Positions 2,245-61,864 of a DNA stretch of 64,000 bases are shown in pieces (positions within the stretch are counted from its first letter, which is position 1; each line of letters opens with the position of its first letter). The notes under the pieces are model-generated. The model was not told the origin of the DNA, searched no databases, and saw only the letters and a program-made list of their open reading frames with translations. The DNA comes from Dipteris shenzhenensis (taxonomy: Eukaryota): the NCBI GenBank assembly GCA_047967505.1, contig CM106538.1. The stretch is one strand, 5' to 3'. The translations under genes and the position numbers were made by a program.

Positions 2245-3731
2245 ATGGAGCCTGAGGAGATCGCCGTCGTCCTCTCCCGCTCCTCTGAGCTCCACTCCAA
2301 GCTCAGCCTCGCCATCGATCGCCTCTTCAACGCACCACCTCCCTCTCTTTCTCCCTCTTCTTCCTCGCCTCCTCCTCCTCCTCCTCCCCTTGATACCCTC
2401 CCCATTGATCCTTCCTCCCTCCGCACTGGCCTCCAAAACGGCATTTCCTCCTTCGATAGGCCCCCTGCCGATGGCCCTGCCGAGGTGCGCAGCCTGGCTT
2501 CCATTCGAGATGCGCTGGAAGCATTGGAGGAGAACCTGGAGGCTTTGCAGGTACCTTCGCCTTTCTAAAGCTCTTCTGGTTCGGTTTGCCTCTTCTCACG
2601 TACCACTGCCTGTAATGCTGCAGTGGACCTTGGAATCGCGTTTTTCTTCTCTTTGGGAACACTTGTTCAATGGCCGTATAGGCCATACACACCTGGGAGA
2701 TCGGTTCTCTCCTTTTTCCGTTCTACGTTGCATCTCGTCACCGACTACGTAACGTTCTTTGAGTGCGTACTTTCCGTTCTCTAAATTTTGTTTTCGCCTG
2801 GCAGGCGTTGCAACAGCAACAGCGAGCAGAAAGAGACGCAGGTCTTGCTGAGATTGAGGAAAGTAGGCGAGTTCTTCTTAGAAGACTCAAAGAACACAGG
2901 GGTAGAGAATCTGAAATAGTTCAAGAAGCCCTCGCTTTTGCTGGCGGAAGTGTGGCTGACAAGGATGATTTGCCGCTGCCGCCTTATCCGAAAGTATACG
3001 ACGATGAATCTCCACGGCGCCCTGTCTCAGCTCCTAGCAGAAGGACCCGCCCAGGGCAGAGATCGGACATGGCTGAAGAGCCCCAGGATAGGAGCGAAGT
3101 CCTTGACTTTGAGCTGGAGGAAGCCCAAGAAGACGATGAGGGAAGCGATGGTGATTTAGCGTTTCAGTACGAGGAGGAAAGAGAGCCTGATAGGCTTTTA
3201 GAAGTGGCTATGGATGCGGCAAATAGATTGAAGAACTCGGGAGCTTTTGCATTTGCTGCGAATGCTGTCAAAAGCTCTGTTGCTCTACTGCGCTACATAG
3301 CGGGGAAAATCACAGGGCAAGTAACGGGACCATCCTCTAAAGTCGTACTGATAGTGGTGAGTACCCTTGCGGTTCTTTCCTTGACTGATATAGGGGAAAA
3401 GAGGAGGAAATCCGTCTCCAGAGTTTCCAGGACGCCAGCACACCGATCTCATTATCATCATGTCGGTGACCTCATTTCTCCCGACAGCTTGCACATCGAA
3501 CAGGCCGAACCCGAGAAATCACCTCAAGTCGGATCCATTCATCAGACAAATGAAGAACGACCTTATTCATCTACAATTGAACATCCTTCTGCTTGTGATG
3601 AAAAGCCTCCTAAAAAGAGTGGCACGGTGAAGTCGGAAGATGAGTTTCCAAAATGCGTTGTTAGAGAGCGACTCGAGCTCCCGTTTTACCAGGAATTGCG
3701 GACCCCTGATGTTCTTTATGGGCGAGGTTAG
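2245..3731 (+). CDS. PDV2: Plastid division protein, PDV family (PDV2-like). Exon 1 2245-2550, GT-AG intron 2551-2804, exon 2 2805-3731; about 410 aa
   Basis: N-terminus MEPEEIAVVLSRSSELHSKLSLAI; coiled-coil segment RSLASIRDALEALEENLEALQ|ALQQQQRAERDAGLAEIEESRRVLLRRLKEHRG; DDLPLPPYP motif; hydrophobic segment VVLIVVSTLAVLSL; C-terminus PDVLYGRG ending in the conserved terminal Gly of PDV proteins. The splice is phase 0 and in frame (CAG|GTAC...GCAG|GCG). PDV1 versus PDV2 assignment rests on the C-terminus only. Confidence 0.85.
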
Positions 3732-5289
3732 AGACATTCGATCAAGGTGGTGGTATTTTTTGGAACATGGATACCTGGAGATCATCAGAAGTTTTAGGAT
3801 GGTGAGGATTTGAGCCTTCAGATCCAATGAAGCTGTGGCAATATGCAGACCTTTGAAGCAGGTTTGTCTGTGATTTCCCACCTTTTACAGAAAGCAAGAT
3901 TTTGCAGAGCTCTCCTAGCATTAGGGCCCGATTCTTCAGATATCATGGAATTCTTTTGAGGAGCCAGCGTGACCTTTTGGTTGGTTTTCTAAATTTCCCC
4001 TGTATGTCTCTTTGAGGTGGAGGAAAATCTGTGTGGCTGTTACAGACAAAATCTTATTGTAAGACAATGTACACCATTGCACAGATGTGTCAGGTTTTGA
4101 TCTCTCCATTTCTCATAAACGATTGATCATTGAACACCATTTATCACCAGGGCCTACACACATGGTTTGATTCATTCCTCAGGCATAAACGATTCAATCA
4201 CGCACAAACATGGTCCAGGTGCATAGCTCACTTTGTTTCCTAGATCTCATTTTGAATGTGCTCTTGTGAATTGTACTTAACGTGTGGGGATGTGCGATTG
4301 GATGCCCTACTTTTTTGTGGTGAAGAGAATGTCTGGTACTTTAGTAATCTGTCAATACTTCTTAGTCATTGTGAAAAGAATACCAGAGTTGTGTTTGGAC
4401 ACCTATTGCCTGCTGTGCTCTGGGCCAATATAAGCTAGGTGACTGGCACGTGGTTTGATTTTTATTAGTCTATTCTCTACATTCTATTTTGTGGAGGAAG
4501 CTAAATCCTTGTGAGAGCGTTATTGTGTTTTGCTGGGTCCCACAACTGAGTTTATTGGGGAAGATTTGCTTTTTTTGTCAGTGCACTTCGTCGGTTCTCA
4601 TTTCACTGATCTAGACTTCTGCTACCTCTCAAGATTCAGTGTGATGCATTCCCTGTTACAGCCAAAGGGAGATCAATTTCCTTTTTTACTGGCCTTAGGA
4701 TCCAAGGTTTCAGTGTGTTTAAAGGAGGTACGTATAGGAAGGCAGAGTGGTCTTATAGTAAGTAGGTGTAACAGATAGTAGAAACCCTTAGGCTCATGTT
4801 GCCAGAAGCATAAAAGGTGAATCCGAAAAGCTCTATGCAGTGCAAATGTGTGCAAAGGAAATACTAAGTAAGGCATCAAGAGGAGTGAACAGAAGAGGAA
4901 TGGACTGTGTGGTCAGGTATTTATAGGAGGGCAGAAGTGGCCTTATGGTAGTTAGGCGCAATAGATATAGGCTAGTGTTGCCAAAATCATGTAAGGTCAA
5001 CATGCAAGGATTTAAGCATCCAAAATGTGTGCAAAGGAATTACTATTTAAGTCTCCGAGAGAGAGGAGTGAATGGACCACAAGCTAGAACACTGTATTGG
5101 TCAAAGGATGAAGGACTTCTTGGAACATACTCAAGATCTCCAATTAGGTATCTGCTATAGAAGGAGCATCAAAGAGCGAAGCTTGTCCATAGTTGAAGCG
5201 GAGGCAGTGTCTGGAGTGCTGGCACTTTTCATGTCATTTCAAACATCTACTGAACCAGATTTGTTGATATCTCGATTATGACAATGATT

Positions 5290-34449: not shown

Positions 34450-37400
34450 TCCATGCCTCTTCAGGAGTACCACCATCCAAACTCTTACTAGGTGATCTAT
34501 TGATCACATGCACTACAGTCTTCATTGCCTCAGCCCAAAAACCACCAGAAAGACTTGCTTTTTTGCAACTCGATTTTGCTCTGGAGTACGAGGGGATGTG
34601 AGCTCCTTCTTAATCCCACGTGTATCACAGAAATGCTGAAAGTCATGAGAGAGATACTCTCCACCATTGTCAGTCCGTAGGCATTTAAGCATTCTACCTG
34701 ACTCTCAACCAAGGCCAACCATTTCTGAAATACCTGGAACACATCACTCTTCCGAGCTATAGCATAAGCCCACACTTTCCTAGTTGCATCATCAATGAAT
34801 GTCACATAGTATTCAACCCCACCTAATGACCGTGTAGGCATGGGACCACATACGTCTGAATGCACCAAATCAAGCTTTTCAAACTCTTTCTTTCCCCTTC
34901 TTTTATGGGCTGATTTAGTCTGCTTCCCATAGAGACAGTGCTCACAAAATTCAAAATCAAAGAAACTCAAATGCGGTACATAACCCAAATGGCATAAGAG
35001 TTTCATTCCATTCTGGCTCATGTGCCCCAACCTGCAATGCCATAAAGAAGTGCTTGGGTGCTCGGTTATTGCAACAACATGATCAAATATTCCTGATACA
35101 TGTAAGGGATACAAAGTCCCACACTTGGCACCCCTAGCCAAAAGCATAGAGCCCTTCTGAATTTTCCAACTCTGAAAGCCAAAAGTGGTGTGAAAACCAC
35201 CATCATCTAGTTGACCCACTGAAATAAGACTCTTGGTCAACTTAGGCACATGTCTCACATGTTTCAAAATAAATGCAGACCCATTTGCAAAAGAAAACTT
35301 TATGTCACCTACTCCCACTATGTCACATGCATAGTCATTTCCAAGATGCACATAACATGTCTTTCCACTGTCATAAGTGGAGAACCATTCCCTATGGGGA
35401 GTAACATGGAATGAAGCACCAAAATCCAAAATCTAATCCTGGGAATATGCATCATCTGAAGTGGTAAGCAACTCTGCAGATAAAGTAGACATGAAGAGAA
35501 CGTCATTGTCACTATCATGTGTGACTACATTGATCTCCTCGCTCTTCACTTTTCCTTTGTCCTCCCTTGGACTCTCTTCCTTTTGATTTGCACCCCAATT
35601 TGCATTCTTTTTCTTATCCTTTTGCTCTCTTTTCAGCTTGTAGCAATCCTTTTTCATATGGCCCTTCTTGCCACAGTGGTAACACTCAATGTTCCGTGCC
35701 TTGGACTTCCCTCTTTCTTGGGATTTCCCCCTGAACTGTGATCTTCCCCTTTTCACATTTAAGGCTGCATCCTGCTTGTTGCCATCCATAGACTTCCATC
35801 TAATCTCCTCGGCCAACAAGCTACCCACAACATCATCAAATTTCAGTACTCCACCAAGTGCAGAGTTACTAACAGCTGTATGGAAGGTATCCCATGAGGA
35901 TGGCAATGAACATAAGAGATATATTGCCTTAGTCTCCGCATCAAAATTCATCTTCTGAGCCTGAAGCTGGCTGAAAATAATATTGAATTCATTCAAGTGA
36001 GAAGCAATGGAGACCCCTTCCTTCATGTGCAGCTCAAACAACCTCTTCATGAGGTAAACTTTATTAGAGGCAATTTCCTTCTCATAAGTGGCACACAGTT
36101 TCTTCCACAAATCTTCCGTAGTCTGCTCATTTACTATTGTGAAATAAACTAACTCTGCAAGATGAAGTCTGATAGTAGACTTTCCTAATGCATCCAACTT
36201 ATTCCAATCATCCTCAGACATATCTGCTGGCTTAGCTTCAATACCTGCCAAGGGTTTAATCTGCTTCTTTTGAATAAGCACATCCCTTATTTGTTCTTTC
36301 CACAAAGAAAAGTTTGTCCCATCAAACTTTTTAATGCTGAAAGCCTCCTTTTCAAACATGGAAGAGGATGCCATGATGCAAATGAAACAAAATCCCAAAT
36401 GCTAGTACCTGCAAGAGAGAATCACACCAAATACTAGGTGCACCCAAATGTGTATGCCACAATAGAGTGAAATATCACCAAAACTCAAAGCTCAAAGCAT
36501 CAAAAAGATACAGCTGACTCATGTGCATGTACTATGCATCCATGGTCCAAAAGAAAATTGCTAGCAATCCAAAATGCCAATAGGTGCCAAATGGCTCAAG
36601 CATAAACACCATCCATGGGTATATGCATCAATAATATCTCATCCAAGAGAGCATAACACTATCAATGCATCACCTACAATGTGTCAAAGCTATCCCTCAG
36701 CATAAAATAGCATCTATGTGCAAAGCGTCCATAAAAAATAGCATCCCACAAGGTAATCTTTGCCTATCAGCGCATCCAATAAGGATCGCAATGCATCCAA
36801 ATGGCCTATAAATCATCCACTGCAACCCAATGCACACCACGAATGAGCGCACATGGCTCAAACTGCAACCAGAGTGATCTGCATAAGGTATGCTCAAGAA
36901 ATCATGGTCCCACAAAAATGACCGCTACTGAAAATAGAACCTAAGATGCCTCAAAACATGGGCACCATTGCATAATCGGACTTAGCAAGAAAATCTGCAA
37001 ATATCTCTATTCTGCTGGAACTCCAAAATCCCAACCGATGAGTGAGAAACGGGAGTCAACACTTATCCACTGCCATGTGGCATAAATCTAAGTTTTCAAA
37101 ACCTTAGAATGAAAAATGCATAATAGAGAGACGAAATCGAATACACAGAGATCTATAACTCTGAAAATACTCCACCGAATTGCACAAGAACTGACAGGTA
37201 GGGGTTTTTGGGTGTCCGAAACGTAATGGGACAGACGGTTTTAGAAACCGTGGTTTCAATCACTGGGTCCAACACACGGACTGAAAAACGTTTTTTGAAA
37301 CAGAACTGTTTGTAAACTCCACCGGAGTGCAAATGATGAGCAACATAGAAGTTTTAGGACCTCTTGAGTCCACCGGAACTGACAGATCTGCAAATGGTTG

Positions 37401-47500: not shown

Positions 47501-50500
47501 ATGGATTCTGCTAGGCCTTCCTTCCACGATTTCATCTCCCGTACTCCATTAATTGATAGAGAGGAGGAGTTATTTCCAGTCTTTGATAAGAGCATAGATG
47601 TCCTAGGCACCTACTTGGGAGCCTGAGATGATTTTGAAGACCTCATCAAGTACATGCAAGAATGCATATCAACTTGATGAGTCTACAAAAAGATGGGTCC
47701 CAATTGATTATTTGAAGTACTTGTTCAATCAAGAACCCAGGCTCGTGAAGCATTTAGATCACTTTTGAGCCCAACTCACACCCCTAGGATTTAGGGAGGT
47801 GGACACTGATGACCTCCTAGCATGTGGAGTCATCGAAAACACAGGAAATAGGTTCCTATCTTGGGAAATGATGTAGAGAAGGGGGAAGGGGCAGATTTGG
47901 AGATGGGGAGAGAATAGCAAAAGGAAGGGAGGAGAAGAGAGGAGAAGGGGAAGGAGAAAGGAAGAGAGAGAAGGTTGAGGGAATAGAGAGAGGGAGAGAG
48001 AGAGAGTGTGTGAGTGTAGGCAGCAGGTAGCAGGAGGGAGAGTAGATAGGATTAGATGTCACATCAAAAAGTGCCTTACAATCCTTTTGGGTTGACTTAT
48101 ATAGTCCCCCACAGTTCCCACATTTCCCCTACTATTCTCCCATCTATTTCCCCCTTAAAATCCTTCTTTTTCCCACCTTCATTACAGCCATCCCTTCCCA
48201 AAGAATTTTGCCCTCAAAATTTCCAAGAGGTCGCCTTGGATGAGAAGGATACAACAGAAACTGATCAGCTCTGTAGGAGATAGGGGTAGTCCTGCACAAT
48301 GCTCTCAGGTTGCCAAGAATTCTCATCTTCCGTTATACCTTTCCATTTGATGAGGTATTCTGTGTAGGCTTTGTTCCTGAGTACATGATCTCTGAAGCCC
48401 TTGATTTGCTCTGGCACATAGATTATGTGGCCCTCTTCATCCATAGGAGGTAGCTCAGGAAGAACCTGGACATGTTGTCTGACATGTGGTTTCAGCAAGG
48501 ATACATGGAAAACATTATGGATCTTGGAGGTACTCGGTAGTTCCAACTGATATGCTACCTACCCAACTTTGCGGATGATTTTGTAGGGGCCATAATACCT
48601 GTGGGCAAGCTTTGTGTTGGTATTACCTTTCAGCGAGGAATATCGATTCTTATGGAGACGTAAATGCACATAATCCCCTTCTTCAAAAGATAAGTACCTC
48701 CTTTGTTCATCCGCATACTTCTTCTGCTTGGCTTGGGCATCCTGCATATTCCTCTTAGCCAACTGCAGAAGGGCATTCATACTCTCCAAATCATTCCTTG
48801 CTTGCTGATTTTTCACAGCCAAGTTTGCAACCCTAGAAGGCATTCCCACTTTGCATCCATACATAGCCTCGAATGGACTCATGCCAATAGAGAGGTGTTT
48901 GGTGCTGTTGTAGCAAAATTCAGCCAATGCTAACCATTTGTTCCAAGACTTCTGCGTGTCATGATAGTAATGCCTTAGATACTCCTCCAACCACTTGTTC
49001 ACCCTCTCTGATTGTCCATCCATCTGTGGATGATAAGCAGTACTAGGCGCAAGCAACTGCAGTGAATAACTCCTGCCAAAAGTGACCCATAAATTTAGCA
49101 TCCCTGTCACTGACAATCTCCTGAGGAAAACCATGGTGCTTGAACACATACTCAATGAATTGCCAGGCAACCTGTGAAGCGGAGTACCGAGTTTTAGTCG
49201 GTATGAAATGGGCCTGCTTAGTCATCCTGTCAACCACCACAAATATGCTATCCCAACCCTTATCTGTAAAAGGCAAGCCTGTAATGAAGTCCATGGCAAT
49301 GTGAGTCCATTTGCCTTCAGGAATGGGTAGCGGTTGCAGAAGGCCTGCGGGTAACCAGCTGTCCACTTTATTTTGTTGGCAGGGCAAACATTCACTGACA
49401 AACTTAACCACATCTCGCCACAAACCATCCCAAATAAAGCTCTCCTTGACTTTTTCATATGTTTTTGTGATACCCGTATGCCCTGACATAGGGGATGAGT
49501 GCATTTCCTGTAATACCATCAACCTGTACTTGGAGTCTGGCACAAGATAAATTCTGTCCTTGCACCATAACAGTTCGTTGCGGAGCTGAAATCGAACATG
49601 TCCTTGGCTGGACGGACTCTGTAACTCCACAAAAATAGGAGCTGCATCAGAATTTTGCATGTATTCCTCCTGAATCCCAAGTATCCACTCCTGATGAAGC
49701 ATGGAAATGGCAGACAGTTTGCATGACCACATCCTGGACAAGGCATCAGCAACCACATTCTCTTTCCCCTTTCTATATTCAATGTCAAAATCATAGGACT
49801 GAACTGCAGCCAGTGATCTCTTCTGCTTCATGGATAAATTAGGCTGCGTTAAGAAGTACTTGAGTGTCCTGTGATCCGTTTTGACCTTAATCTTGCTACT
49901 GTACATGTAGTGGTGCCATTTTGCAAAAGCATGCAAGATTGCCAGCATCTCTTGATCATAAACATGATAATTCATTTCTCTGGCATTAAGCTTCCTGCTC
50001 TCAAAAGCAATCACACCATGCTCTTGTTTTAGGACAGCCCCTAAACCTTTGCCACTGGCATCCGTCTCAATAATGAAAGACCGTGAGAAATCAAGGCACA
50101 CCAATACAGGTGCATTGCTAAGGGCATCCTTGAGGTTATCAAAGCTGAGTTGTGCTGCTTCTGACCATTGGAAGGCATCCTTTTTCAACAAATCAGTGAG
50201 AGGGGCAGCCCTTTTAGCGAAGTGCCTAATGAATCTCCTGTAAAAAGAAGCAAGACCCAAGAAACCTCTGAGTTGCGTGGTATTTTGTGGCTGCGGCCAC
50301 TCCTTAATGCATTTCACCTTAGCTGGGTCTACCCTGATTCTGTGCCTACTTACAACATGACCAAGATATTCAACCTCCTCTGCCATAAATGTGCACTTGC
50401 TGGCCTTGGCATAAAGCTGATGCATTCTCAAGATTTCTAGCACTTGTCGGACATGGTCAATGTGTTCCTGTGCATCCTTACTATAAATGAGAATGTCATC

Positions 50501-53500
50501 AAAAAATACCAGCACACATTTGAAAAGAAGGTGGTGTAAGATCTTGTTCATGAGTGCCTGGAATGTGGCTGGTGCATTAGTCAAACCAAAAGGCATCACC
50601 TTGAACTCATATAATCCTCTTTCTGTACGAAAGGCAGTCTTATGCTCATCACCCTCTTTCATCCTGATCACTTTCAGACCATGGTCTATCTCTGTAGCAA
50701 CTAATCCCAATCTTTGCAATGTTCTACAATTAATGAAACTGTGAGTGCTACCACTGTCTACCAATACATGGACAGATTTGCCATTAATCATTCCCTTCAA
50801 CCTGATTGTGTCAACACTTTTGGCACCCATCAAGGCATGTAGTGAGATGGTATACAGTGTAGACTGGGCATCCCAATAAATCTGTTCATCATCCATAGGA
50901 ACATTACCATTAGCATCACCTCTGACAGGAAAAGGCATTGTATGTTGATGCTCTAACACAGAGAGTGTTGGCTTACGGCCTTTCCTGCTACATGTAGGCT
51001 GAATATCAATCTCATGCATCACATGAGTGGTTTGCTCAATAGCCCCACCCGGATCAAAAGGAAAAACAGTCCCCTTTGTGGCATCTGTGTCAGGAGACTC
51101 ATCTACATCATGAACTCCTGTCAATTCCTCATGAGAGACATCATGGGGGTCTGCTACATCAGCCACTTCATCATCATCAGATAATTCAATTATCATGATG
51201 AGTTTGGCTGAGCTGACATTCTTCATTTTGCACACATCTCAGTGCTCAGGTGTCCATTTCTCTCCACACCTAAAGCATAAATTTGCCTTCTTCCTGTTGT
51301 CCATTATGGCTCTGGAATGTTGTTTAACTTCTGATTTGCCAAAACCAGCACTGGGTTTGACACCTGTCTTTGCATCCATGGGCCTGTATGGCTTTGCATA
51401 TGGCATCTTACTTCTAGAAACCGTTGGATATCGTGGGAAGGAAGTAGCTGCTGGTTTTTTATCAATCCAATCAGCAGAATTTGTCTTCCTGTCAACATCA
51501 TAAGCAGTACCATAGAAGCTATTGACACATGCTTGTACTTGCCAGCATATTTTGGCTCAAACACCTCAGCAAGCTGGGCTGCTCGCTCAATGGTTAGAGG
51601 ATTGTGAGCTCTCACATCAGCAGCTAGAGAGGGATCTAAGCCTTGTATAAAACGCAGCAACTTCCCTTTCTCAGAAATATCCTGTACAAACAAAGAAAGT
51701 CTCCAAAGACGCTGCAAGTACTCCTGGACCGTACCTGTTTGTGACAGTGCATAGGATTCAACAAGGTACTGTTCAAGGATCAGGGCCGAGACGAAGGTCG
51801 TGACCATAAGCTCCTTGAACTGTTTCCAGGTGGTAGGCTTCTGAGGTGACTCTCGCATGTAACGCCACCATGTATGTGCATAATCCTGTAAATGCATGCC
51901 AGCAAAAATGATCCTCTCCTCATCATTCTTAGGGTAGAAGCGGAAGTAATCTTCAAGCTTTGTGAGCCACTCCTCCAACTCATTGGGAGTGCGAGTGTCA
52001 CCCTTAAACTTATGCACAGAGATTTTATCTTTCACATCTTTGGCTGCATTATTCCTATAGTGACTACTAGCATACTCACGCTTGAAGCTCACATACTGTG
52101 AAAAGGGCATCTCATTACGAACATCCTCAGGCAAAGCCCTATATGAACGTAAGGCATCTGAAAGCATATCATCCAGGTTTGCATGCTGCCCACTTCCAGC
52201 ATCATGTTGGTTAGGAGAACCACTCCCCTGATGCATAAAGTGCGTCTGACTGAAAGCATTACCTCCCTGATACGCAGGCTGAGTCTGACTGAATGTATTA
52301 ACAGGAGGTGTCATCGAAGCATGCAATCTCTGCTGAGTCTGCCTGCCATAAACATCTCGGTGGGTGGGTGGCATAGAAAAAGGTTGAGAAGAGGATTGAC
52401 CCCTCTCCCAACTGCCCTGTTCAACCCAACACCCAATCCAGGCATGCTCGCCGTTGGCAAAAATGTGCCAATGGGCTGGCCCAAAATGGACGGCTCAGCC
52501 AATGAAATATGCGAGCCAAATGGAGGCCTGGAATCAATAAGAGAAGTGCTCGGCGGCATGGGCAAGGCATCACCAAAATCAACATAATCCCCATGCTAGG
52601 GTGCATGCATAGAACCAACATCATAAGTGCGACGGCCATCAGCCATAAATCCCCTGTGTGGGTCAGGAAAATCACCCTGGCTATCCGACTGATCCCTGTG
52701 CTGGGGTGCGGGCTGCTTACCCTTATCGTGCATACTGATGGCGGTAGTGATCTGTTGCCCAAGGTTCTTACCTATCTGGGTGATAGCTGTATCGTGCATA
52801 GCCATAGCAGTGGTGAGCTGCTGCCCCAACTGCTGACCCATCTGCTGAAAAGCCCCCTGAAGCATCGAGGCCAATGCATCTAGAAATTGTGTGTCGGTAG
52901 GCATAGCAAAAACTGGCTGTGAAGGAGATGCACCCTCTGGGACTGGCATCTGCTCCTGCTGAGCAACATCGTCACCGTGCTGAGATGACTCATTCGACCG
53001 GGGTGCACGTTTGGGTGCCATGAGTGACACGAGGAAAATGTGCCAAGTGTCAAAGGCTCGATGTAGAGGCTCGAGAGGTGTCAGTAAAGAGGCTCAAATG
53101 CAGTCGTTGAAGAGGTTCAAAGAAAGCTCGGTGAAGAGGCTGGAAATGGGGCTCAAAATGAGCCACGAAGGTGGCTTAGAAAGGCCCAGAATAGGGCTGT
53201 AGGAGTACCCTAAAAGAGGGCTCTTTTTTTTTTTTTTTTTTTGGAGCTTAGGACAACTAAGACACCTAGGGTAGTCTCAACTAAACCAAACTGACTAAAC
53301 CCAACCTTATCCAATCACTAACCTAACTAGACCTAAACTAACCTAACCAACCAAACCCAAGTAGCTAACCAACCCAACCTAAACCCCAACTAGCTGAACC
53401 TTAGCAATTGCTAAGGTCTCCAGCGATGCAGCGCCGATGAAAGGCGACATCAACGGCACGGGCGGAGAAGGCACGAGCGTGACGTGGGCGCCAAGATGGT

Positions 53501-55344
53501 GACGGGTTGCAGGCACAATGCCAGGATGGTGACGGGCTTTGGCGACTGACGGGCTGAGGGCCTGAGCGACGGATGGGCAACAACGCCAGAGATGCAGGCT
53601 ATGGTGGCTGATGGGCTAAGGGAAGGAAAAACGGCGGGGCGACGATGGGGGAGTTGGAGTAGCGACGACGGGGAGCTGGAATACTACACAGACTGTTGAG
53701 GCTCAAACTTGCAACGCAGGCTACTGGACAGCAACGTAATCAGGCATGTCGTTGATGGCGCACGTCCGTGCTGTTGTTTGTTTGCTGGCAGCCCACGCTT
53801 GTTTCCTTGACGATTTCCTTGACGTAGCTTGGCCGACGACATGCTAGTAGTTCCCCTCAGCCTGAAGCACTGGCAAACCATGATTGATAGCAAGACTCAG
53901 TGAGGGTCAGGTGCCAAGAGCTTGGGCTCTGATACCAATGTAGAGAAGGGGGAAGGGGCAGATTTGGAGATGGGGAGAGAATAGCAAAAGGAAGGGAGGA
54001 GAAGAGAGGAGAAGGGGAAGGAGAAAGGAAGAGAGAGAAGGCTGAGGGAATAGAGAGAGGGAGAGAGAGAGAGTGTGAGCGTAGGCAGCAGGTAGCAGGA
54101 GGGAGAGTAGATAGGATTAGATGTCACATCAAAAAGTGCCTTACAATCCTATTGGGTTGACTTATATAGTCCCCCACAGTTCCCACATTTCCCCTACTAT
54201 TCTCCCATCTATTTCCCCCTTAAAATCCTTCTTTTTCCCACCTTCATTACAAATGACCTTTATTTTCCTTCTCCAGGAGGGACAAATGGAAGAGGAGGCC
54301 TCGACCTCAAGCCCTGACCCTACCCCTGCCCTTTCCGATCCTCTTATTTCTGTAGTTGAGCCCAACATGTACAATGAAGAGCCCATAGATGAAGAAGCTG
54401 AGGAGCGGGAAGCTGCATTGGCCCTGGAAGTGCTCCAGCGACCTCCTGAACCCCATTCTACTTCTCAAATTCCATCCACCTTGGGCACCACCTCTGTTGA
54501 CCCCGCAATAATGATATGGTTTCTTGCTCCCCTTCTTGTCGATGGAGAACAATACCTCTTTCTCCATGACATAGAGGTTATGTTTGGTCTCCGGGAGGAT
54601 GAAGCTCTTGGTATCCTGTGTGGATATGAGGTGGACATGACTATACAAGAACCTGGGTTTTTGGAAGCATATGATTCAATAGAAGAGGTTCTTGCTTTAA
54701 CACTGGCCCAAATCAAAGATGTAGAGACATCAATCTACTCCAACCTACCTGATGTTCCAGAAGAAGCCTCCACATCTCACTGTAGATAGCAAGAGGCCTC
54801 TGGATCCATCCTCATTGACAAAGAGGAAGGGATTGAGCATGATGACTCCATAGTGGTAAGAAACTATGAGCTTTGAATTTCTTCTCTCTTGGTATACTTT
54901 TGCTTTAATGGAATTCTAATGTAATGTTGGACTGTTGCAGGAGGCATTTGAGGTCGACCTATTCTCATCTCGGCAACACCTTGTTCGCAGTAGCTTCGGC
55001 CGAGATCACTCACTGGAACATTACCTTGGCCAAGCAAAAGGGTGCTTTGTGGTTATCCACAAAAAGTTTTCTCCACATGGCATTAGTGCAAGGCCTTGTC
55101 AAGAGTGATTGGTCATGCTGACATCAATCGCAATGCTGACAAGGTCATTTTGGTGAACCGCATGGCTGCCCTCAATGCCTTTGGAACCAATTTTCAAGGT
55201 ATGGCATTGATGGCAGCAGCCATGTCCCTGGTCAGTAACAACAATAGCAATGACTCTCTATCAACTAGGGTTAGAGCTAGGAGTGTATTTGGGAATTCAA
55301 AGCCCAATGTTCTTAGTGTTTTAGAGAAGAGAGAAAGGCTCTAA
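47501..55344 (+). pseudogene. Second plus-strand accessory gene of unknown function (acidic), split by the nested Gypsy
   Basis: ATG 47501 (MDSARPSFHDFISRTPLIDREEELF). Coding-like sequence resumes after 54256 (EGQMEEEASTSSPDP...). A phase-0 GT-AG intron lies at 54856-54940. Stops and frameshifts are present. Confidence 0.45.
47872..54251 (-). mobile_element. Ty3/Gypsy chromovirus LTR retrotransposon, young, with an internal deletion
   Basis: LTRs 47872-48186 and 53939-54251 are nearly identical; perfect TSD AATGA; PBS-Met 53926-53937; gag 51304-52374; pol 49043-51235 (LVDSGSTHSF, VFFDDILIYS, IETDASG, HIAMDFITGLP); chromodomain EYLIKWKG...NSW at 48265-48546. Confidence 0.95.
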
Positions 55345-55569
55345 AGCCTTATTGTATAGAAATTTTATTTTATATGAATACAGCTATACTTTTTATAAGT
55401 GCCCCATTTTGTGTTCTTTTACAAAATTTATTTTATACTGTCATTATATTTTTTTACTTTAATTGTTGTTGGCATTAATATTTTCATTCACTATTCTGTT
55501 CAAAAGCATGTGATCAGATAAATATTTGCGCTATAATGGTCATTTCTGAGCAATCTAGTAAGAATCTCA

Positions 55570-55900
55570 TTGCGCAGCAGAAGGCAAATGTGTTCGGCAT
55601 CGCGCGGGGAGCCCAAAAATGGCAAAACCCGCTATGGCACGTATGGGGCCTGTTTGACCCATACGCGCCATAGAGGGTTTTGCCACATGTTCGGCATCGC
55701 GTGGGGAGCCCAAAAATGGCAAAACCCTCTATGGTGCGTATGGGGCCTGTTTGACTTAGGGAGCCCAAAAATGGCAAAACCCTCTATGGCGCGTATGGGG
55801 CCTGTTTGACTAAGTCAAACAGGCCCCATACGCACCATAGAGGGTTTTGCCATTTTTGGGCTCCTCGCGTGATGTCGAACACATTTTCCTTCTGCCGCGA
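55570..55900. repeat. Fold-back made of tandem and inverted copies of a roughly 52-bp unit
   Basis: GAGCCCAAAAATGGCAAAACCCTCTATGGCGCGTATGGGGCCTGTTTGACT occurs three times forward, then inverted around a 1-nt centre at 55812. Confidence 0.9.
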
Positions 55901-55983
55901 GGCGAAAAAACATCATTTGACCACTCAAATTCACATTGAACTTGCATAAATTGATGGAAAGCATCATGTAATATGTATAATAG

Positions 55984-56578
55984 GGTCTGCTTTGTCCTTG
56001 GTCTCTTTTCCTTTTCATGAGGCTGTGAGACAGTAGGCTGAGGCTCTTGCTCAGCTTGTACTAGAGGCTCCTCATATTTGATCATCTCGAGGCACAGAGG
56101 GTTGATGGTGCTCTTTCGTGCGGTCTGCTTGGCTGAAGGATTGGGGCCAAGGTTCATTATATCTGCGAGCCCGCCAAATACTTCCTCTTGTTGTGGCCCC
56201 TGTAATCTCTCCATCTCCTCTCTTTGCCTTTCTTGCTCCCCTTGTTGATCTAGATGCCCCACGCTAGGACCCCACGGAGAAGGGAGGGGCAGTTGATCAG
56301 GACTGACTGGACTATTTTGCCCCTCTCGGGAGACCTCTCTACTTCCACGATTAGTTGTGGAAGGACTGAGGGGAGCCCTCATCATGCTTAGATCCTTCAT
56401 CGTGCTGGGATTCCTCATGGCACTGAGATCCCTGGGATCTCCCATGAGAGTTGGATGGTGGGGACTCGTGTTGCTTGGACTCCTAGTGAGGAGACGTTTC
56501 TATGGCGTTGTGAGGAGGACAACGGGTAGCATCTAAACGGCATCCAGTGGGTCTAGCAGTTTGTTTAACTCGTGCCAT
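55984..56578 (-). pseudogene. Small disordered protein with three histone H3-tail-like motifs; frameshifted and apparently 3'-truncated
   Basis: ATG at 56578 gives MARVKQTARPTG. KQTARKST is at 56130-56107 and PRTKQT at 56001-55984. One frameshift and one stop lie between the first motif and ORF 55810-56445. Confidence 0.7.
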
Positions 56579-56593
56579 AGAAATGAGGGATTT

Positions 56594-56662
56594 TAGGGTT
56601 TTGAAGTGCTTTATATAGTCTTTTTTAAAGCACTTTAGGGTTTTTCTTTTAAATTAGGGTTT
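56594..56662 (-). promoter_or_regulatory. Putative promoter: three telo-boxes (AAACCCTA) and a TATA box
   Basis: TAGGGTTT at 56594, 56636 and 56655; CTATATAA on the minus strand at 56618-56611, directly upstream of ATG 56578. Confidence 0.6.
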
Positions 56663-56858
56663 TTTGAGTGCACCTCCTCCCCCCCCAGTCTTTTGTCGCC
56701 AGTTCAGTAATACTTAATCTTCACCACCCTCCCTCCCAACCCACTCACCCCTCCACCCTGCCATGTTGCACATGCAATTCTGCAATTTTCAAACAAATTT
56801 GTGAATTTTGGAATCTATAATTGACTCAAAATAGTGTTAATTTTATTCATCAAACATT

Positions 56859-59738
56859 TTACATTTGGGGCTCTCTTAGGACCCAACGCCTCCCCTGTCT
56901 GACTCTACGTTGCAACCAAAGTGCAACCCCTTGGCTCCCTATTGAGGACTTCCAAGCAGCAAATCTCCTTGTCTTCTTGACATGTTGAACCGCTTTTGTG
57001 AGACTTGAGAACTCTACCTTATCACGCTTGAGAGTCCTGGCCTCTAGACATCTATAAAACCAATCGAACATTTCGTGTAGTGCATTGCTTTGCGCGATAC
57101 CACCCCCATGCCTTGTATTCTTGAAGTATGCTACCTTTGCTCTGTAGTGTGATTTCTCCATTCCTTGAGTATTCCAAATGGACAGAGGGCCCCATTGCTC
57201 CACAAACCATGGTGCATGTGCGTAAAGAATATGCTGTAAAGAAAAACATTGTATTAGAAACATAAATTGACTCAAGTTTAAAGCACAAAATTTCAACCTA
57301 AGGAGGATTACCATGTAATGTGTAATATGTGACTCCCCCCATGCTTCTACCATCAATGATATGAATTCTCCCAATGCTATCCTAAATCTCTCATAATAAA
57401 GCTCATCTGTTTGACCTTGTCTAAGCAACTTTATAAATGCATCAAGATTTGTCCACAGTTTTGCTCTCAAAGTAGCAATTCACGGATGTGAAGCTTGATT
57501 TGTGGTGCACTCACAAAAATCTTTCTAGTATTTCCAACCTAGGGTGCTTTGAGCCAATGTATGTTTTTCTTTATCAGCATTGTGGTTGGACAAGTACCTC
57601 CTTGCCTTTCCTCCACCCATGGACACTTTAGCAGGAAGATTTTGTGTCTTTCCTGATTGTTTCTTATCCTGCTTAAGCTTCACATTGCCTCCGTGAAGTC
57701 CCATTAGTGAGAGTAGTTCTTTAGCTTTTGCAATGCATTGTGCAGATACTTGATGTGGCCTCAAATTCCAAGCATAAACTAGATGGAGATAGAGTAACTT
57801 ATCAAGTATACGCAGTTCAGTATGCAAAGTACACATGTGTACTTGCTCCAATGGAATTGGTAGAATGGGGTCCGACTTAGGATCCTTTTTGTGACAATCA
57901 GGGGCTACACTTTGGTTGCAAGAAAGGATGCCATTTTCCCACTGTAGGCTTCCCTTTTGCATCTTCTGAGAGTGGGTGAATACAAGCATGTCCATTTTGC
58001 ATCTGCACCTATATCACAACCATACAAGCACTTGAGGGTCTTCAAATCACCAGATTCCATTCAACTTGAAACATTCCATGCCCATCCACGATTAATGTTT
58101 GCCCTACCTCTTGTCTTCGAATAATCGACGGGATGCCGCTCTCTTCAAAACCCACTTCAATGTCTCGTGGCACTCCTTTGGGGTCTCAAAGGTTGCAAGC
58201 CACCATATGTCCTTCTAAGATTGGACTAAGAAATCCTGCTCAACTTCCTCATCCCCTTGAGCAAAACGCAAGGCGTCGTTCATAATACAAATGCTCACCC
58301 TTTCTAGCTTGTGCTCTTTTACCAACTGAGCTTCATCCATTTTTATAACAAATACTAGCTTGCCATCTGTACAATGAAAGAGAAATTCAATAAGGATATA
58401 GAAATCAAAAGAAATAAAGTTGAATGTGAAGAGGGAATTTCTCTTACCTTCTTCTCTCATCCCATAGAATTTGACCATGGCTCTCTGCAAATTCTTTACA
58501 TCCACATAAACATTATTGAAAGCATTCATCTCAAACATTTGGATGCCAGATTTCTTTTTACTCTTCCAAGTCATTGTGCCACTTACACAATGGTATCCTC
58601 CAAGCTTTTCTCTAGCACATTGGTTTGTTTCTTGACGTGCAAGCCTTACAGACCACGGTGTTGGCAATGGCATTGTAGATATCTTATACTTTTCCTCCAT
58701 AGTAGACTTGAAAATTTTAAAAACAGAGTTGTAAGCTTCACGACTTACACCAATAGCATCACAAGCTCCAAGCACCTCCTTTGCTTGGACGAGGCCCTTG
58801 AAATCCTTCATTACCTCTCTAGCAACTTGTTTACATAGCCCTTTTTGTCTAGGGTCCTTCAACACTTCCATGACATCACTTGGCTTTATTAAACTTCTTA
58901 GAACATATGAAGGATCACTATTATCCATTTCCATTGTTCCCATCACATCCTCTATGAAATTCCTAAAGTAGAGTACAAATGAGTCTTAGTGGAAAGAATG
59001 CAACACCACAAATATTTTGGTGTAAGCAATTTCATTGAAAATTTTGGGAACTAACCTTGCAGCCTGTATTCTCCTCTTTCGGGCACCACTACTGGTTGAC
59101 AATGCATCCATAGATTGCAATTATCTTTTCCTCTCCTTTAGTCCCAAAGGTGTTCCCTTCAACTTTTGTACTTGTTCTATCGACTTCTCTTGTTCCTTCT
59201 CCACAGCACATTGAACTTGGCCATAGATAGACCTTTCCAAATCTTGTTTGCTTTCAGCAAGCTTTTGGATTGATTCTTCCAATTCATGTCGCTCCAAGTC
59301 CAGTGCATGTGCTTTGTCACTGAGTTCTTTGTTTTGCAATTGGAGATCCTACATACTATTATGCATTGCCACAATAGTAATATTTCCCAAATGTGCAAGT
59401 TCTTATGCTTGGGCTCTCTGCACCTCGCTTGCTTGCATAGCCAATGTCTGAGAATGGTTCAATCGATTGCAATAACCGAGCAATCCAGCATGTCCCTTGC
59501 CAACAAACCGAACAACATCATGCACTGTATGAAAAGGAGGACTCTTTTGGGTGGCAGGGTCTAAAGGATACAAGTTTCCATCCACCCAAAGGACAAGATG
59601 CTTCTTCCCTTGCAATTGAAGACTGTGGAGCACACTTTGAGGAGTTCCACTATATCCCAAAGAATGTGTGCTTGCATATTCTGCCTCCAGTTGTAGGTTC
59701 ACATGGTACTTGTTGGATATGTCCTCGAATGGTGCCAC
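56859..59738 (-). pseudogene. RAG1/Transib-like DDE transposase with three predicted GT-AG introns (59055-58963, 58447-58367, 57311-57234)
   Basis: FVIKMDE (D at 58337-58335); GDLKTLKCLYG...WTCLY[C] (D at 58048-58046); CTLHTELRI; ITHYM|HILYAHAPWFVEQWGPLSIWNTQGMEKSH (E at 57158-57156). Order and spacing parallel the RAG1 core. N-terminal coiled coil. Several stops and frameshifts. Confidence 0.75.
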
Positions 59739-60937
59739 GAGTACTTAAAGAGAGGTATAAGTGATGCTGGCTAAAATGTAGGGGAGAGCTGGCAAAGATG
59801 GAGTAGTGAGAGGGAGAGAGTAGCAAGGAAGAGGGAGAAGGAGAAGCAGATGAGGGCAAGAGGAAGAGGAGGGGAAGAGTAGGGCGACAGGTGTAGAAGG
59901 GAGGGAAGGAGCTGCTGTAGAAGCGAGGAGGAGGGGAGAGATGCTGCAAGAGGGAGGAGGAGGGGAGAGATTCTGCAGGAGGGAGGAGCAGAGAAGAGGG
60001 ATCCTAGGCAGGTGGAGAAGGACGGGAGAGGAAGGAGGGAGGAGGAGCTAGAAGGAGGAGGACAGGAGAGGGAGGAGGGAGGAGGAGGAGCAAGACGGAG
60101 GAGGGGAGAGGAGGAGGGAGGGGGAGGAAGGGAGACGGAGAGGGAGAGGAAGGAGGAGGAGGGAGGGAGGTAGGCAGGGAGGGAGAGAGAGGGAGAGAGG
60201 GAGAGAGAGAGAGAGAGAGGGAGGGAGGGAGGGAGATTCGAAATTTGAAATTCAAATTTCAAAAAGTGGCCCCCTCCCCTCATTGATGGGGGGAGAGGTG
60301 GGCTCAAATGTGGGCTTAACCCACCTAGGTTGGGCTGGTTAGGCCTCTTTGGGACCCTCCAAGCCCATTGCATTAGCCCACTAAGCATTCCCTAATCCAT
60401 TCCTTATGAGGCCCTTTTGAGACCCCAATTCTCCCCTAATAGTTAATAAAACTATCCCTAATCTTCGTGTTCTACCCGACAAACTTCTAGGTCTCTGGAG
60501 TTGGCGAGGAAAAGCAAGTCTTCCTTTCCTACAGAGTTTCCTCGACACACCAACTCGATCACTGCTTCAATCACACGCTTTTATACCATTGTTTGCTTTG
60601 ATACCATTGTTGGCTCTCAAAGCATCAAAGAAATTCAACACAAGTGATATAGAAAACACACAATACTGCACTTCTATTATTGTTTGACAAAATGAGTCTC
60701 AACCCTATGGGGTTTGTTGGCTATTACAAGACCTACAAATGACCCCTATACCTAGAAGTATGAGTAGCTACAAGCCACGACTCCTACATGCTCAATGGCA
60801 TTGATAAAAAGACAGATCTAAATGCCTCCATAGTTCATATATTGGTCATCTTGAGAGAGACATCGATTGCCGCCCTCGAACATGCGTGAACCTTCAAAAT
60901 CTGTTTCCTATCAACCTAAGACTAGACACGCATTCAT

Positions 60938-61864
60938 TGTTGGCACGCTCTACGTGTGCCACATGTCAGATGAAGCGTCGAGTGTGGGGGGTCCCAATCC
61001 CTCATCTCCTAGCCACGCATGCCTCTCTCCCGCCCCTAAAAGGCCCGAGAGGGATGAGAGAGAGGGTTCAATTGAGCCTTTTATATTCAAGGCCCCCAAG
61101 AGGGCACATATGCATATGGGATTATTTCCCATTATATCCACGTGTCGACATCGCGCAAGACCCCCTCCACAATTCATCTTTTAACCATGCTGAGGGGTGA
61201 AGGTCACCACTTCCCAACACCCCCCTGTGGACAAACTCCAAGGTACAACTCATCAAACCAAAGGTGACTCCCAACCAAAGCAAGGAGGGGCCAACCAAAC
61301 AAGGCAAATGGGACAAATCAAACTCCATGTAACCAACAACAAAGATCACCTTTGCAGGTGGTGTAGTGTCGTGGATGTCTCGCACACAAAAGTGCATTGC
61401 TTTGTCTACCACAGAGGCTGAGCATAGCGTGTAGCCAAAGCCCACGGGAGTCAAATCACAATCAGTGCCTTCAAGAGCCATCGTCGTAATAAAGTCACAA
61501 ACAATGCGCCGCCACGAACAGTTAGTCTCTATCACCGCACGTAATCTGTCATACAATCGGCAGGTTCAGCCCTGCTCTGATACCATGTTGGCACACTCTT
61601 TTTCGTGCCATGTGTCAGATGGAGCCTCGAGTGCAGGGGTTCCAATCCTGTGCCTCCTAGCTAGGCATGCCTCTCTCTCCCCCCGACAGGTCCCATGAGG
61701 GATGAGAGAGAGGATTCAATTGAGCCCTTTATATTCAAGGCCCCCAAGAGGGCACATATGCATATGGGATTATTTCCCATTATATCCACGTGTCACAAAG
61801 TGCAAGACCCCTCTACAATTCATCTTTTGACAATGCCGAGGGGTGAAGGCCACCACTTCCAACA
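60938..61864 (-). mobile_element. TRIM (terminal-repeat retrotransposon in miniature) nested in the Copia 5' LTR
   Basis: Direct repeats 60938-61219 and 61586-61864 (TGTTGG...CCAACA); PBS-Met 61574-61585; PPT after 61219; TSD TTCAT/TTCAC; the sister LTR has a single TTCAC (empty site) at 43982-43986. Confidence 0.92.

Follow-up and report, generated by a model that had tools for sequence, protein, structure and literature searches.

Short stretches that imitate the tail of histone H3 are found in non-histone proteins, as with the ARSK motif of influenza NS1 and the automethylation motif of G9a, and the activity of vertebrate RAG is coupled to the reading of H3K4me3. An H3-tail-like automethylation motif in a non-histone protein is likewise described for SETDB1, as far as the excerpt available on it goes. 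In the Dothideomycetes Pseudocercospora fijiensis and Pyrenophora tritici-repentis, DNA transposons of the hAT type have been reported to have captured H3 and multiplied it and, according to the available sections of that account, the H3 of P. fijiensis is a retrocopy that has been inactivated by RIP in every transposon copy (PMC6710886). One survey, on fusions between chromatin genes and transposable elements, lists in its accessible part mainly reader domains (10.1101/2021.11.30.470311). Published cases of H3 capture by transposons are confined to inert cargo in hAT elements of fungi, and in the full texts, supplements aside, we found no description of a transposon-encoded H3-tail mimic or of an H3 variant in a RAG1-like transposon.

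The H3-like open reading frame (ORF) described here lies on the minus strand of the window, by which we mean the whole 64 kb stretch of DNA that was analysed, and is placed between two genes of a transposon family, the transposase and a second gene, ORF2. The features of the locus are as follows.

54121 to 55344, plus strand: ORF2, the second gene of the family, convergent with the transposase and recognised by tblastx
55573 to 55899, no strand: repeat array with a unit of about 55 nt (GGAGCCCAAAAATGGCAAAACCC...) in direct and inverted copies, directly downstream of the H3-like ORF
55984 to 56499, minus strand: core of frame B of the H3-like ORF, 172 codons, rich in P, S, E and Q, with AKQTARKST inside and PRTKQT at its end
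56483 to 56578, minus strand: frame A of the H3-like ORF, consisting of MARVKQTAR (H3-tail motif 1), 22 further codons and a stop
56593 to 56662, minus strand: three exact AAACCCTAA motifs upstream of the ATG, on either side of the TATA box
56609 to 56619, minus strand: TATA box ACTATATAAAG, about 40 nt 5' of the ATG at 56578
56859 to 59744, minus strand: transposase pseudogene, tentatively of distant RAG1/Transib likeness, with ORF0 as first exon (59744..59403) and the main body at 58985..56859

The ATG at 56578 opens MARVKQTARPTG, of which MARVKQTAR occupies 56578..56552, and frame A closes after 31 codons at a stop (56485..56483). Frame B extends without a stop from 56499 to 55810 (229 codons) and carries AKQTARKST at 56133..56107 (motif 2) and PRTKQT at 56001..55984 (motif 3), beyond which it continues through AT-rich DNA and then through the repeat array. 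The canonical H3 used for comparison (P0255) begins MARTKQTARKST. The N-terminal tail of H3, ARTKQTARKS, is represented by the start MARVKQTAR, by the internal KQTARKST, which is an exact copy of H3 residues 4-11, and by the terminal PRTKQT. These three motifs had been read correctly in the original prediction, which had also described linkers rich in P, S, E and Q, an agreement borne out by the composition of frame B (P 12.8%, S 9.9%, E 9.3% and Q 8.7%), and a frameshift that splits the start of the ORF from the rest. The two frames are indeed out of register, being jointly open over 14 nt only (56499..56486), and a one-base frame change within that stretch would be the simplest link between them. 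An intron was considered as another way to join frames A and B; formal GT..AG pairs are plentiful, yet all of them lack a good donor and the DNA there is not AT-rich, and an indel was preferred. A fourth, weaker echo of the tail, P*KRLLTR, had been proposed as well. It is not supported: it lies in frame B, upstream of the frame-B stop, so that an extra frameshift is needed, no profile detects it, and the derivation of its TAG from CGG by CpG decay takes two substitutions rather than one CpG transition.

Translated in six frames, the 64 kb window contains KQTAR twice, both times in the H3-like ORF; residue frequencies give an expectation of 0.03 for the window, and block shuffling (n = 200) produced one KQTAR in six shuffles and two in none; the corresponding expectations for MARVKQTAR and KQTARKST are 1e-7 and 7e-6. 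The pattern M-x-R-x-K-Q/E, searched as a regular expression, matches the window only at 56578. The length of the ORF was dropped as whole-window evidence, as an ORF of at least 229 codons arose somewhere in 92/200 whole-window shuffles, and only the local test is informative: in 20000 local shuffles the 229-codon frame B was open in none and its 172-codon core in seven, while the other five frames over frame B contain 4 to 11 stops. Frame B therefore is, or recently was, coding. All five codons that motifs 1 and 2 share differ between them (AAA CAA ACT GCT AGA against AAG CAG ACC GCA CGA), the codons AAG CAG ACC are common to motifs 2 and 3 while motif 1 uses others, and the mutual similarity of the DNA flanking the three motifs is not above that of shuffles. 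On these two grounds, different codons and surrounding DNA at shuffle level, recent DNA duplication of the motifs was rejected, and their likeness is one of peptide only.

The absence of a histone fold from the ORF, also part of the original prediction, is upheld by Pfam, by tblastn and by an H3 profile. Pfam PF00125 was not found in frame B, and tblastn with the histone part of a fern gene model (P0052, see below) gave no match in the window. The profile, built from transposon-borne and canonical H3 and run against the six-frame window, had no match in or near the ORF; its matches all had an i-E of 2.3 or worse and all lay away from it, which rejects a fold hidden elsewhere in the window, and the same search detected no host H3 gene within the 64 kb. 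Frame B matched no Pfam family and had no Atlas match, and no homologue of it was found at 125-401 aa or 30-124 aa (5.8 billion proteins). Nor was there any Rfam match over 53000-61000. Directly after motif 2 (56106-56060, minus strand), LCLEMIKYEEP loosely echoes the H3 alphaN segment ALREIRKYQKS, with which it shares E, K and Y; an H3 that had lost most of its tail by deletion would look like this, although the echo is unseen by the H3 profile and may be chance.

Upstream of the ATG, AAACCCTAA, which we take to be the plant telo-box, has three exact matches in the 64 kb window, all of them at 56593-56662 and on the strand of the H3-like ORF; three matches anywhere were reached in 1 of 100 shuffles. 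With this motif and the TATA box before its ATG, the H3-like ORF has the look of a separate transcription unit.

The H3-like ATG lies 280 nt downstream of the stop of the transposase, on the same strand. The transposase has 125 relatives among 1.84 billion representative proteins, and its profile found no loci in prokaryote genomes and viral contigs. Conserved in the family are VIKLDE, AGDLK, PC-x-x-C, H-x4-H and QGME, which we presume to correspond to RAG1 residues. No Pfam family reaches its cut-off on the transposase. A profile made from 10 transposase relatives (A3) matched nine distinct PDB sequences, all of them RAG1, with a best E of 0.0031, and another profile (A1) had no PDB match; on Pfam, RAG1 appeared at E about 0.003 in 2/10 relatives, below the cut-off. 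The transposase is thus tentatively placed as distantly RAG1/Transib-like. RAG1 is its sole PDB or Pfam match, covering the part of the protein that contains H-x4-H and the last catalytic Glu, and the convergent second gene is reminiscent of the RAG1L/RAG2L arrangement in the accessible description of that pair (PMC7204232). In contrast to RAG1/Transib, the E value is only about 0.003, below the Pfam cut-off, ORF2 is without a Kelch or PHD match, and towards the ends of the elements only subterminal hairpin arrays were seen, with no TIRs or target-site duplications found.

When compared with intact relatives by tblastn, the transposase of the window shows three in-frame stops at collinear aligned positions, so at least three premature stops are present, and it has at least two frame changes near 58150..58054. 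These stops and frameshifts indicate that the transposon copy in the window is dead. Between THYM and HILYAH (57309-57230, minus strand) about 26 codons can be read through in frame; this stretch, shared with P0001 and lacking in P0009 and P0046, marks a short transposase intron.

ORF2 was matched by tblastx to the equivalent downstream gene on the opposite strand of two related loci, L009 (E 6e-5; 3102-4572, minus strand) and L001 (E 0.002; 3287-5120, minus strand), with weaker collinear matches at L004, L006 and L008. The ORF2 of the window matches no Pfam family, the ORF2 and ORF0 of L001 and L009 gave nothing meaningful in Pfam, and no Kelch or PHD signal was seen in ORF2 by Pfam. The repeat array contains four exact copies of its unit, which occurs nowhere else in the window, and could form long hairpins. 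Similar hairpin arrays are found at one end of L001 (5051-5291) and L004 (5009-5257); their sequences are unrelated between elements and their positions, subterminal or intergenic, are comparable. Unlike the layout in L001 and L004, the array of the window sits between the H3-like ORF and ORF2, and because of this placement the locus may be rearranged, or it may consist of two adjacent copies. Low-complexity DNA that is GA-rich (CT-rich on the other strand) flanks the transposon genes at 53975-54103 and 59797-60253, and a (GA)n run lies just 5' of the ORF0-like start at L018; the GA-rich flanks may reflect a target preference or be part of the subterminal structure. Transposable elements are dense across the wider window. 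By eye, a gypsy-type LTR retrotransposon with gag, reverse transcriptase and integrase occupies 48559-53093 (minus strand), and Pfam identifies copia-type gag/pre-integrase ORFs at 34530-36401 (minus strand). No host genes were recognised among the 10 large ORFs scanned in the window.

Scanning of metagenome contigs with the transposase profile gave 18 related loci, in 11 of which the match is followed by at least 800 nt of downstream sequence. At three of these 11 (L011, L016 and L018) an H3-variant gene follows shortly past the transposase stop on the same strand:

L018: 168 codons, start MGRVKQCAKRLP, intact
L016: start MVRIKECANRLP, with one in-frame TGA
L011: start MARTKQTACKNPP, long tail, fold at 1048-1377, with one frameshift and one stop

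No H3 gene was found at the other eight loci with enough flank, so that not all members of the family carry it, and several of these eight have the convergent ORF2 within a few hundred nt instead. The distance from transposase stop to H3-variant ATG is 281 nt at L011, 107 nt at L016 and 136 nt at L018. At all three, a TATA box comparable to that of the window precedes the ATG by about 50 to 70 nt, and AAACCCTAA is missing. A fourth example is P0052 (KAH7296203.1), one of the 125 transposase relatives and a Ceratopteris richardii gene model in which the C-terminus of the transposase is joined to an H3 fold, and which may represent a real fusion transcript or an annotation artefact across two neighbouring transposon genes. 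The Pfam Histone family is matched at E values of 5.6e-34 (L018), 5.6e-26 (L016), 3.7e-31 (L011) and 9.4e-31 (P0052), and the H3 variants of the relatives combine the start M-x-R-x-K-Q/E and a divergent tail with a full histone fold. The L018 type has a longer loop 1, a C-terminal extension, a divergent N-terminal tail and a conserved fold; it comprises 12 clusters of 62-94% identity, nearly all of 155-170 aa and many with intact members of 168-169 aa, after which the next matches are canonical H3s at about 50% identity. Some 370-480 nt past the H3-variant gene, L018 (2713-2856) and L016 (3078-3238) have a further ORF with its own TATA box. These ORFs start MVRVKKTPTR (L018) and MVRRKITPRR (L016), are loosely H3-tail-like, and match the transposase ORF0 of L001, L009 and the window by a common Y-x9-Y pattern; they are either tandem copies or a sign of altered gene order in that lineage.

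Between L018 and L016 the H3 gene has a dN/dS of 0.21 (tail 0.215, fold 0.203) at a dS of 1.26, and its dN of 0.26 is equal to that of the transposase (0.27). The H3 variant of this lineage is under purifying selection. Given this ratio and the mostly intact set of 12 clusters, at least one lineage of the transposon family therefore carries a functional H3 variant. In a tree of the C-terminal region of the transposase, from which L014 (matched over just 66 residues) and the majority of the 125 protein relatives were left out, the window groups with P0001/P0005 and the P0052+L011+L013 clade at a support of 92/91, which is below the strong-support mark of the tool. That clade contains both carriers of the long-tail H3 type that starts MARTKQTA, and L016 and L018 form a separate clade. 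At least one acquisition of an H3 gene took place in an ancestor of the transposon family. Identity of the two transposon H3 types is 48-60% to canonical H3 and 41-47% to each other; as each is nearer to canonical H3 than to the other type, separate captures are possible, the alternative being one old capture.

These observations bear directly on the origin of the window ORF, which is probably what is left of a transposon-borne H3-variant gene, namely its promoter, its start codon and its long, disordered N-terminal tail, preserved as a relic in a dead copy. This is supported by position, strand, stop-to-ATG spacing, TATA box, start motif and transposase tree. The H3-variant genes share the strand of the transposase, begin some 100-300 nt past its stop and stand behind a TATA box, as does the window ORF, and the window ORF has their M-x-R-x-K-Q/E start; the complete fold that follows the tail in the relatives was not found in the window, hence the ORF is at best a truncated derivative of such a gene. 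No sequence similarity was detected between the tail in the window and those of L011 and P0052, and homology thus rests on position, start motif and transposase tree. The ORF is derived from H3 and, with complete H3-variant genes at the same position in related transposons, it is most simply the tail end of one of these. Of the interpretation first given to this ORF, the derivation from H3, the location inside a transposon and the lack of a fold stand, whereas the complete and selected H3-variant gene at the same position in relatives had been missed, and a relic comes close to the decaying captured H3 gene fragment that the prediction itself had named as grounds for its refutation. The plant setting (SUVH/CMT3) that it assumed is plausible, since a relative is a fern gene model and three telo-box motifs stand just 5' of the ATG. 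Simple decay of a relic does not explain the second and third motifs, written in their own codons. Motif 2 is nearer to canonical H3 than the start of any relative, and the two further motifs, which are absent from 18/18 related loci and from 135 related proteins, may be a lineage-specific elaboration of the tail.

Other origins for the ORF were weighed against a relic of this kind. It could be a patchwork of 5' fragments of host H3, possibly with a host promoter, that were captured piecemeal apart from the H3 of the family (by gap repair, for example) and have been drifting neutrally, which we regard as unlikely. Capture of H3 by hAT elements is documented in Dothideomycete fungi, as far as the available sections of that account extend (PMC6710886), all three motifs begin at H3 residues 1-3 and so at the 5' end of the coding sequence, motifs 2 and 3 share codons that motif 1 does not use, the telo-boxes lacking in relatives would fit a captured host promoter, and the transposon-borne H3 types may be separate captures themselves. 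The spacing, strand and start motif nevertheless match the H3 gene of the family closely (280 nt against 281 nt at L011), the likeness to H3 ends after 8-13 residues in each fragment and leaves the rest of the 172-codon frame unlike H3, and neutral drift does not predict an open frame of 229 codons. A chance resemblance in non-coding repeat DNA has practically nothing left to recommend it: an open frame of this length is indeed common in whole-window shuffles (92/200), yet two KQTAR in 0/200 shuffles, the minute expectations for MARVKQTAR and KQTARKST (1e-7 and 7e-6) and the local open-frame test refute it, and it leaves the position behind a transposase with H3-carrying relatives unaccounted for.

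It is also conceivable, though quite improbable, that a multivalent mimic consisting of the tail only evolved from the H3 variant of the family, as a fold-less, disordered decoy or competing substrate for the writers and readers of H3K9 and H3K4 that would blunt silencing. Three H3-tail motifs within about 600 nt, in different codons and without DNA likeness, are what would be expected if the peptide was kept; in addition the frame that holds them is open far beyond local chance, the ORF has a TATA box and three telo-boxes of its own, and motif 2 retains the exact K4-T11 stretch including ARKS. Weighing against such a mimic, no homologue in which conservation could be seen was found in the 125-401 aa, 30-124 aa and Atlas searches, the internal motifs are absent from 18/18 related loci and 135 related proteins, the copy is frame-broken and lies in a dead element, relatives encode a fold-bearing H3 at the equivalent position, and the ORF is without a clear natural end, entering AT-rich DNA and the repeat array. 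In its fullest form, a plant transposon lineage of RAG1-like type would have acquired an H3 variant, shed the fold and repeated the K4-K9 motif, yielding a soluble multivalent decoy that is expressed from a telo-box/TATA promoter and that titrates H3K9 methyltransferases and chromo/PHD readers, or diverts H3K4 writers, to escape silencing, with the window as a recently inactivated copy; this scenario we consider very doubtful.

The window copy lacks a part coding for the fold, its reading frame has one break and its transposase is broken too; most likely it is inactive now. In intact relatives, the H3 variant would be transcribed from its own promoter, pair with H4 and enter nucleosomes. The four H3-like starts keep the R2/K4 region and break the ARKS context of K9 (replaced by AKRL, ANRL and ACKN, and by ARPT in the window), and nucleosomes containing the variant would then be poor substrates for H3K9 methylation. 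An anti-silencing role for the H3 variant in intact relatives, which this would fit, is our favoured guess; transposase targeting, which it would fit as well, or nuclear import via the H3 tail, would be alternatives.

The locus and its relatives resemble the described systems in part only. As in the fungal hAT elements, the nearest published case, going by the available sections of that account (PMC6710886), an H3-derived cargo lies beside a transposase and many copies are degraded; unlike in those elements, the transposase is distantly RAG1-like and of another superfamily, in the relatives H3 is served by a TATA promoter of its own, its tail has diverged strongly and its dN/dS is about 0.2 across deep transposon lineages, and the window copy keeps tail motifs only, three of them. 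The L018 type shares with CENH3/CENP-A a divergent tail, a longer loop 1 and a conserved fold, and the tails of the L011 and P0052 type are long and unalignable, as CENH3 tails are. In contrast to CENH3, the transposon H3 genes adjoin a transposase and are multicopy, and the window copy is fold-less. With the mimics in NS1, G9a and SETDB1 the window ORF has in common a short motif (nearly) identical to the H3 tail, in a disordered region and with no histone fold, but its motifs number three and, most likely, come down from a real H3 gene instead of being convergent.

Our results suggest that the H3 variant at the level of the family, which is under selection, is a more interesting result than the relic in the window. 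The H3 variant has its own promoter, is under purifying selection and diverges in step with the transposase, which implies that a family of DNA transposons employs a histone of its own, and the link of this variant to a RAG1-like transposase is suggestive. If confirmed, this would provide an example, amenable to testing, of how a mobile element can alter its own chromatin substrate.
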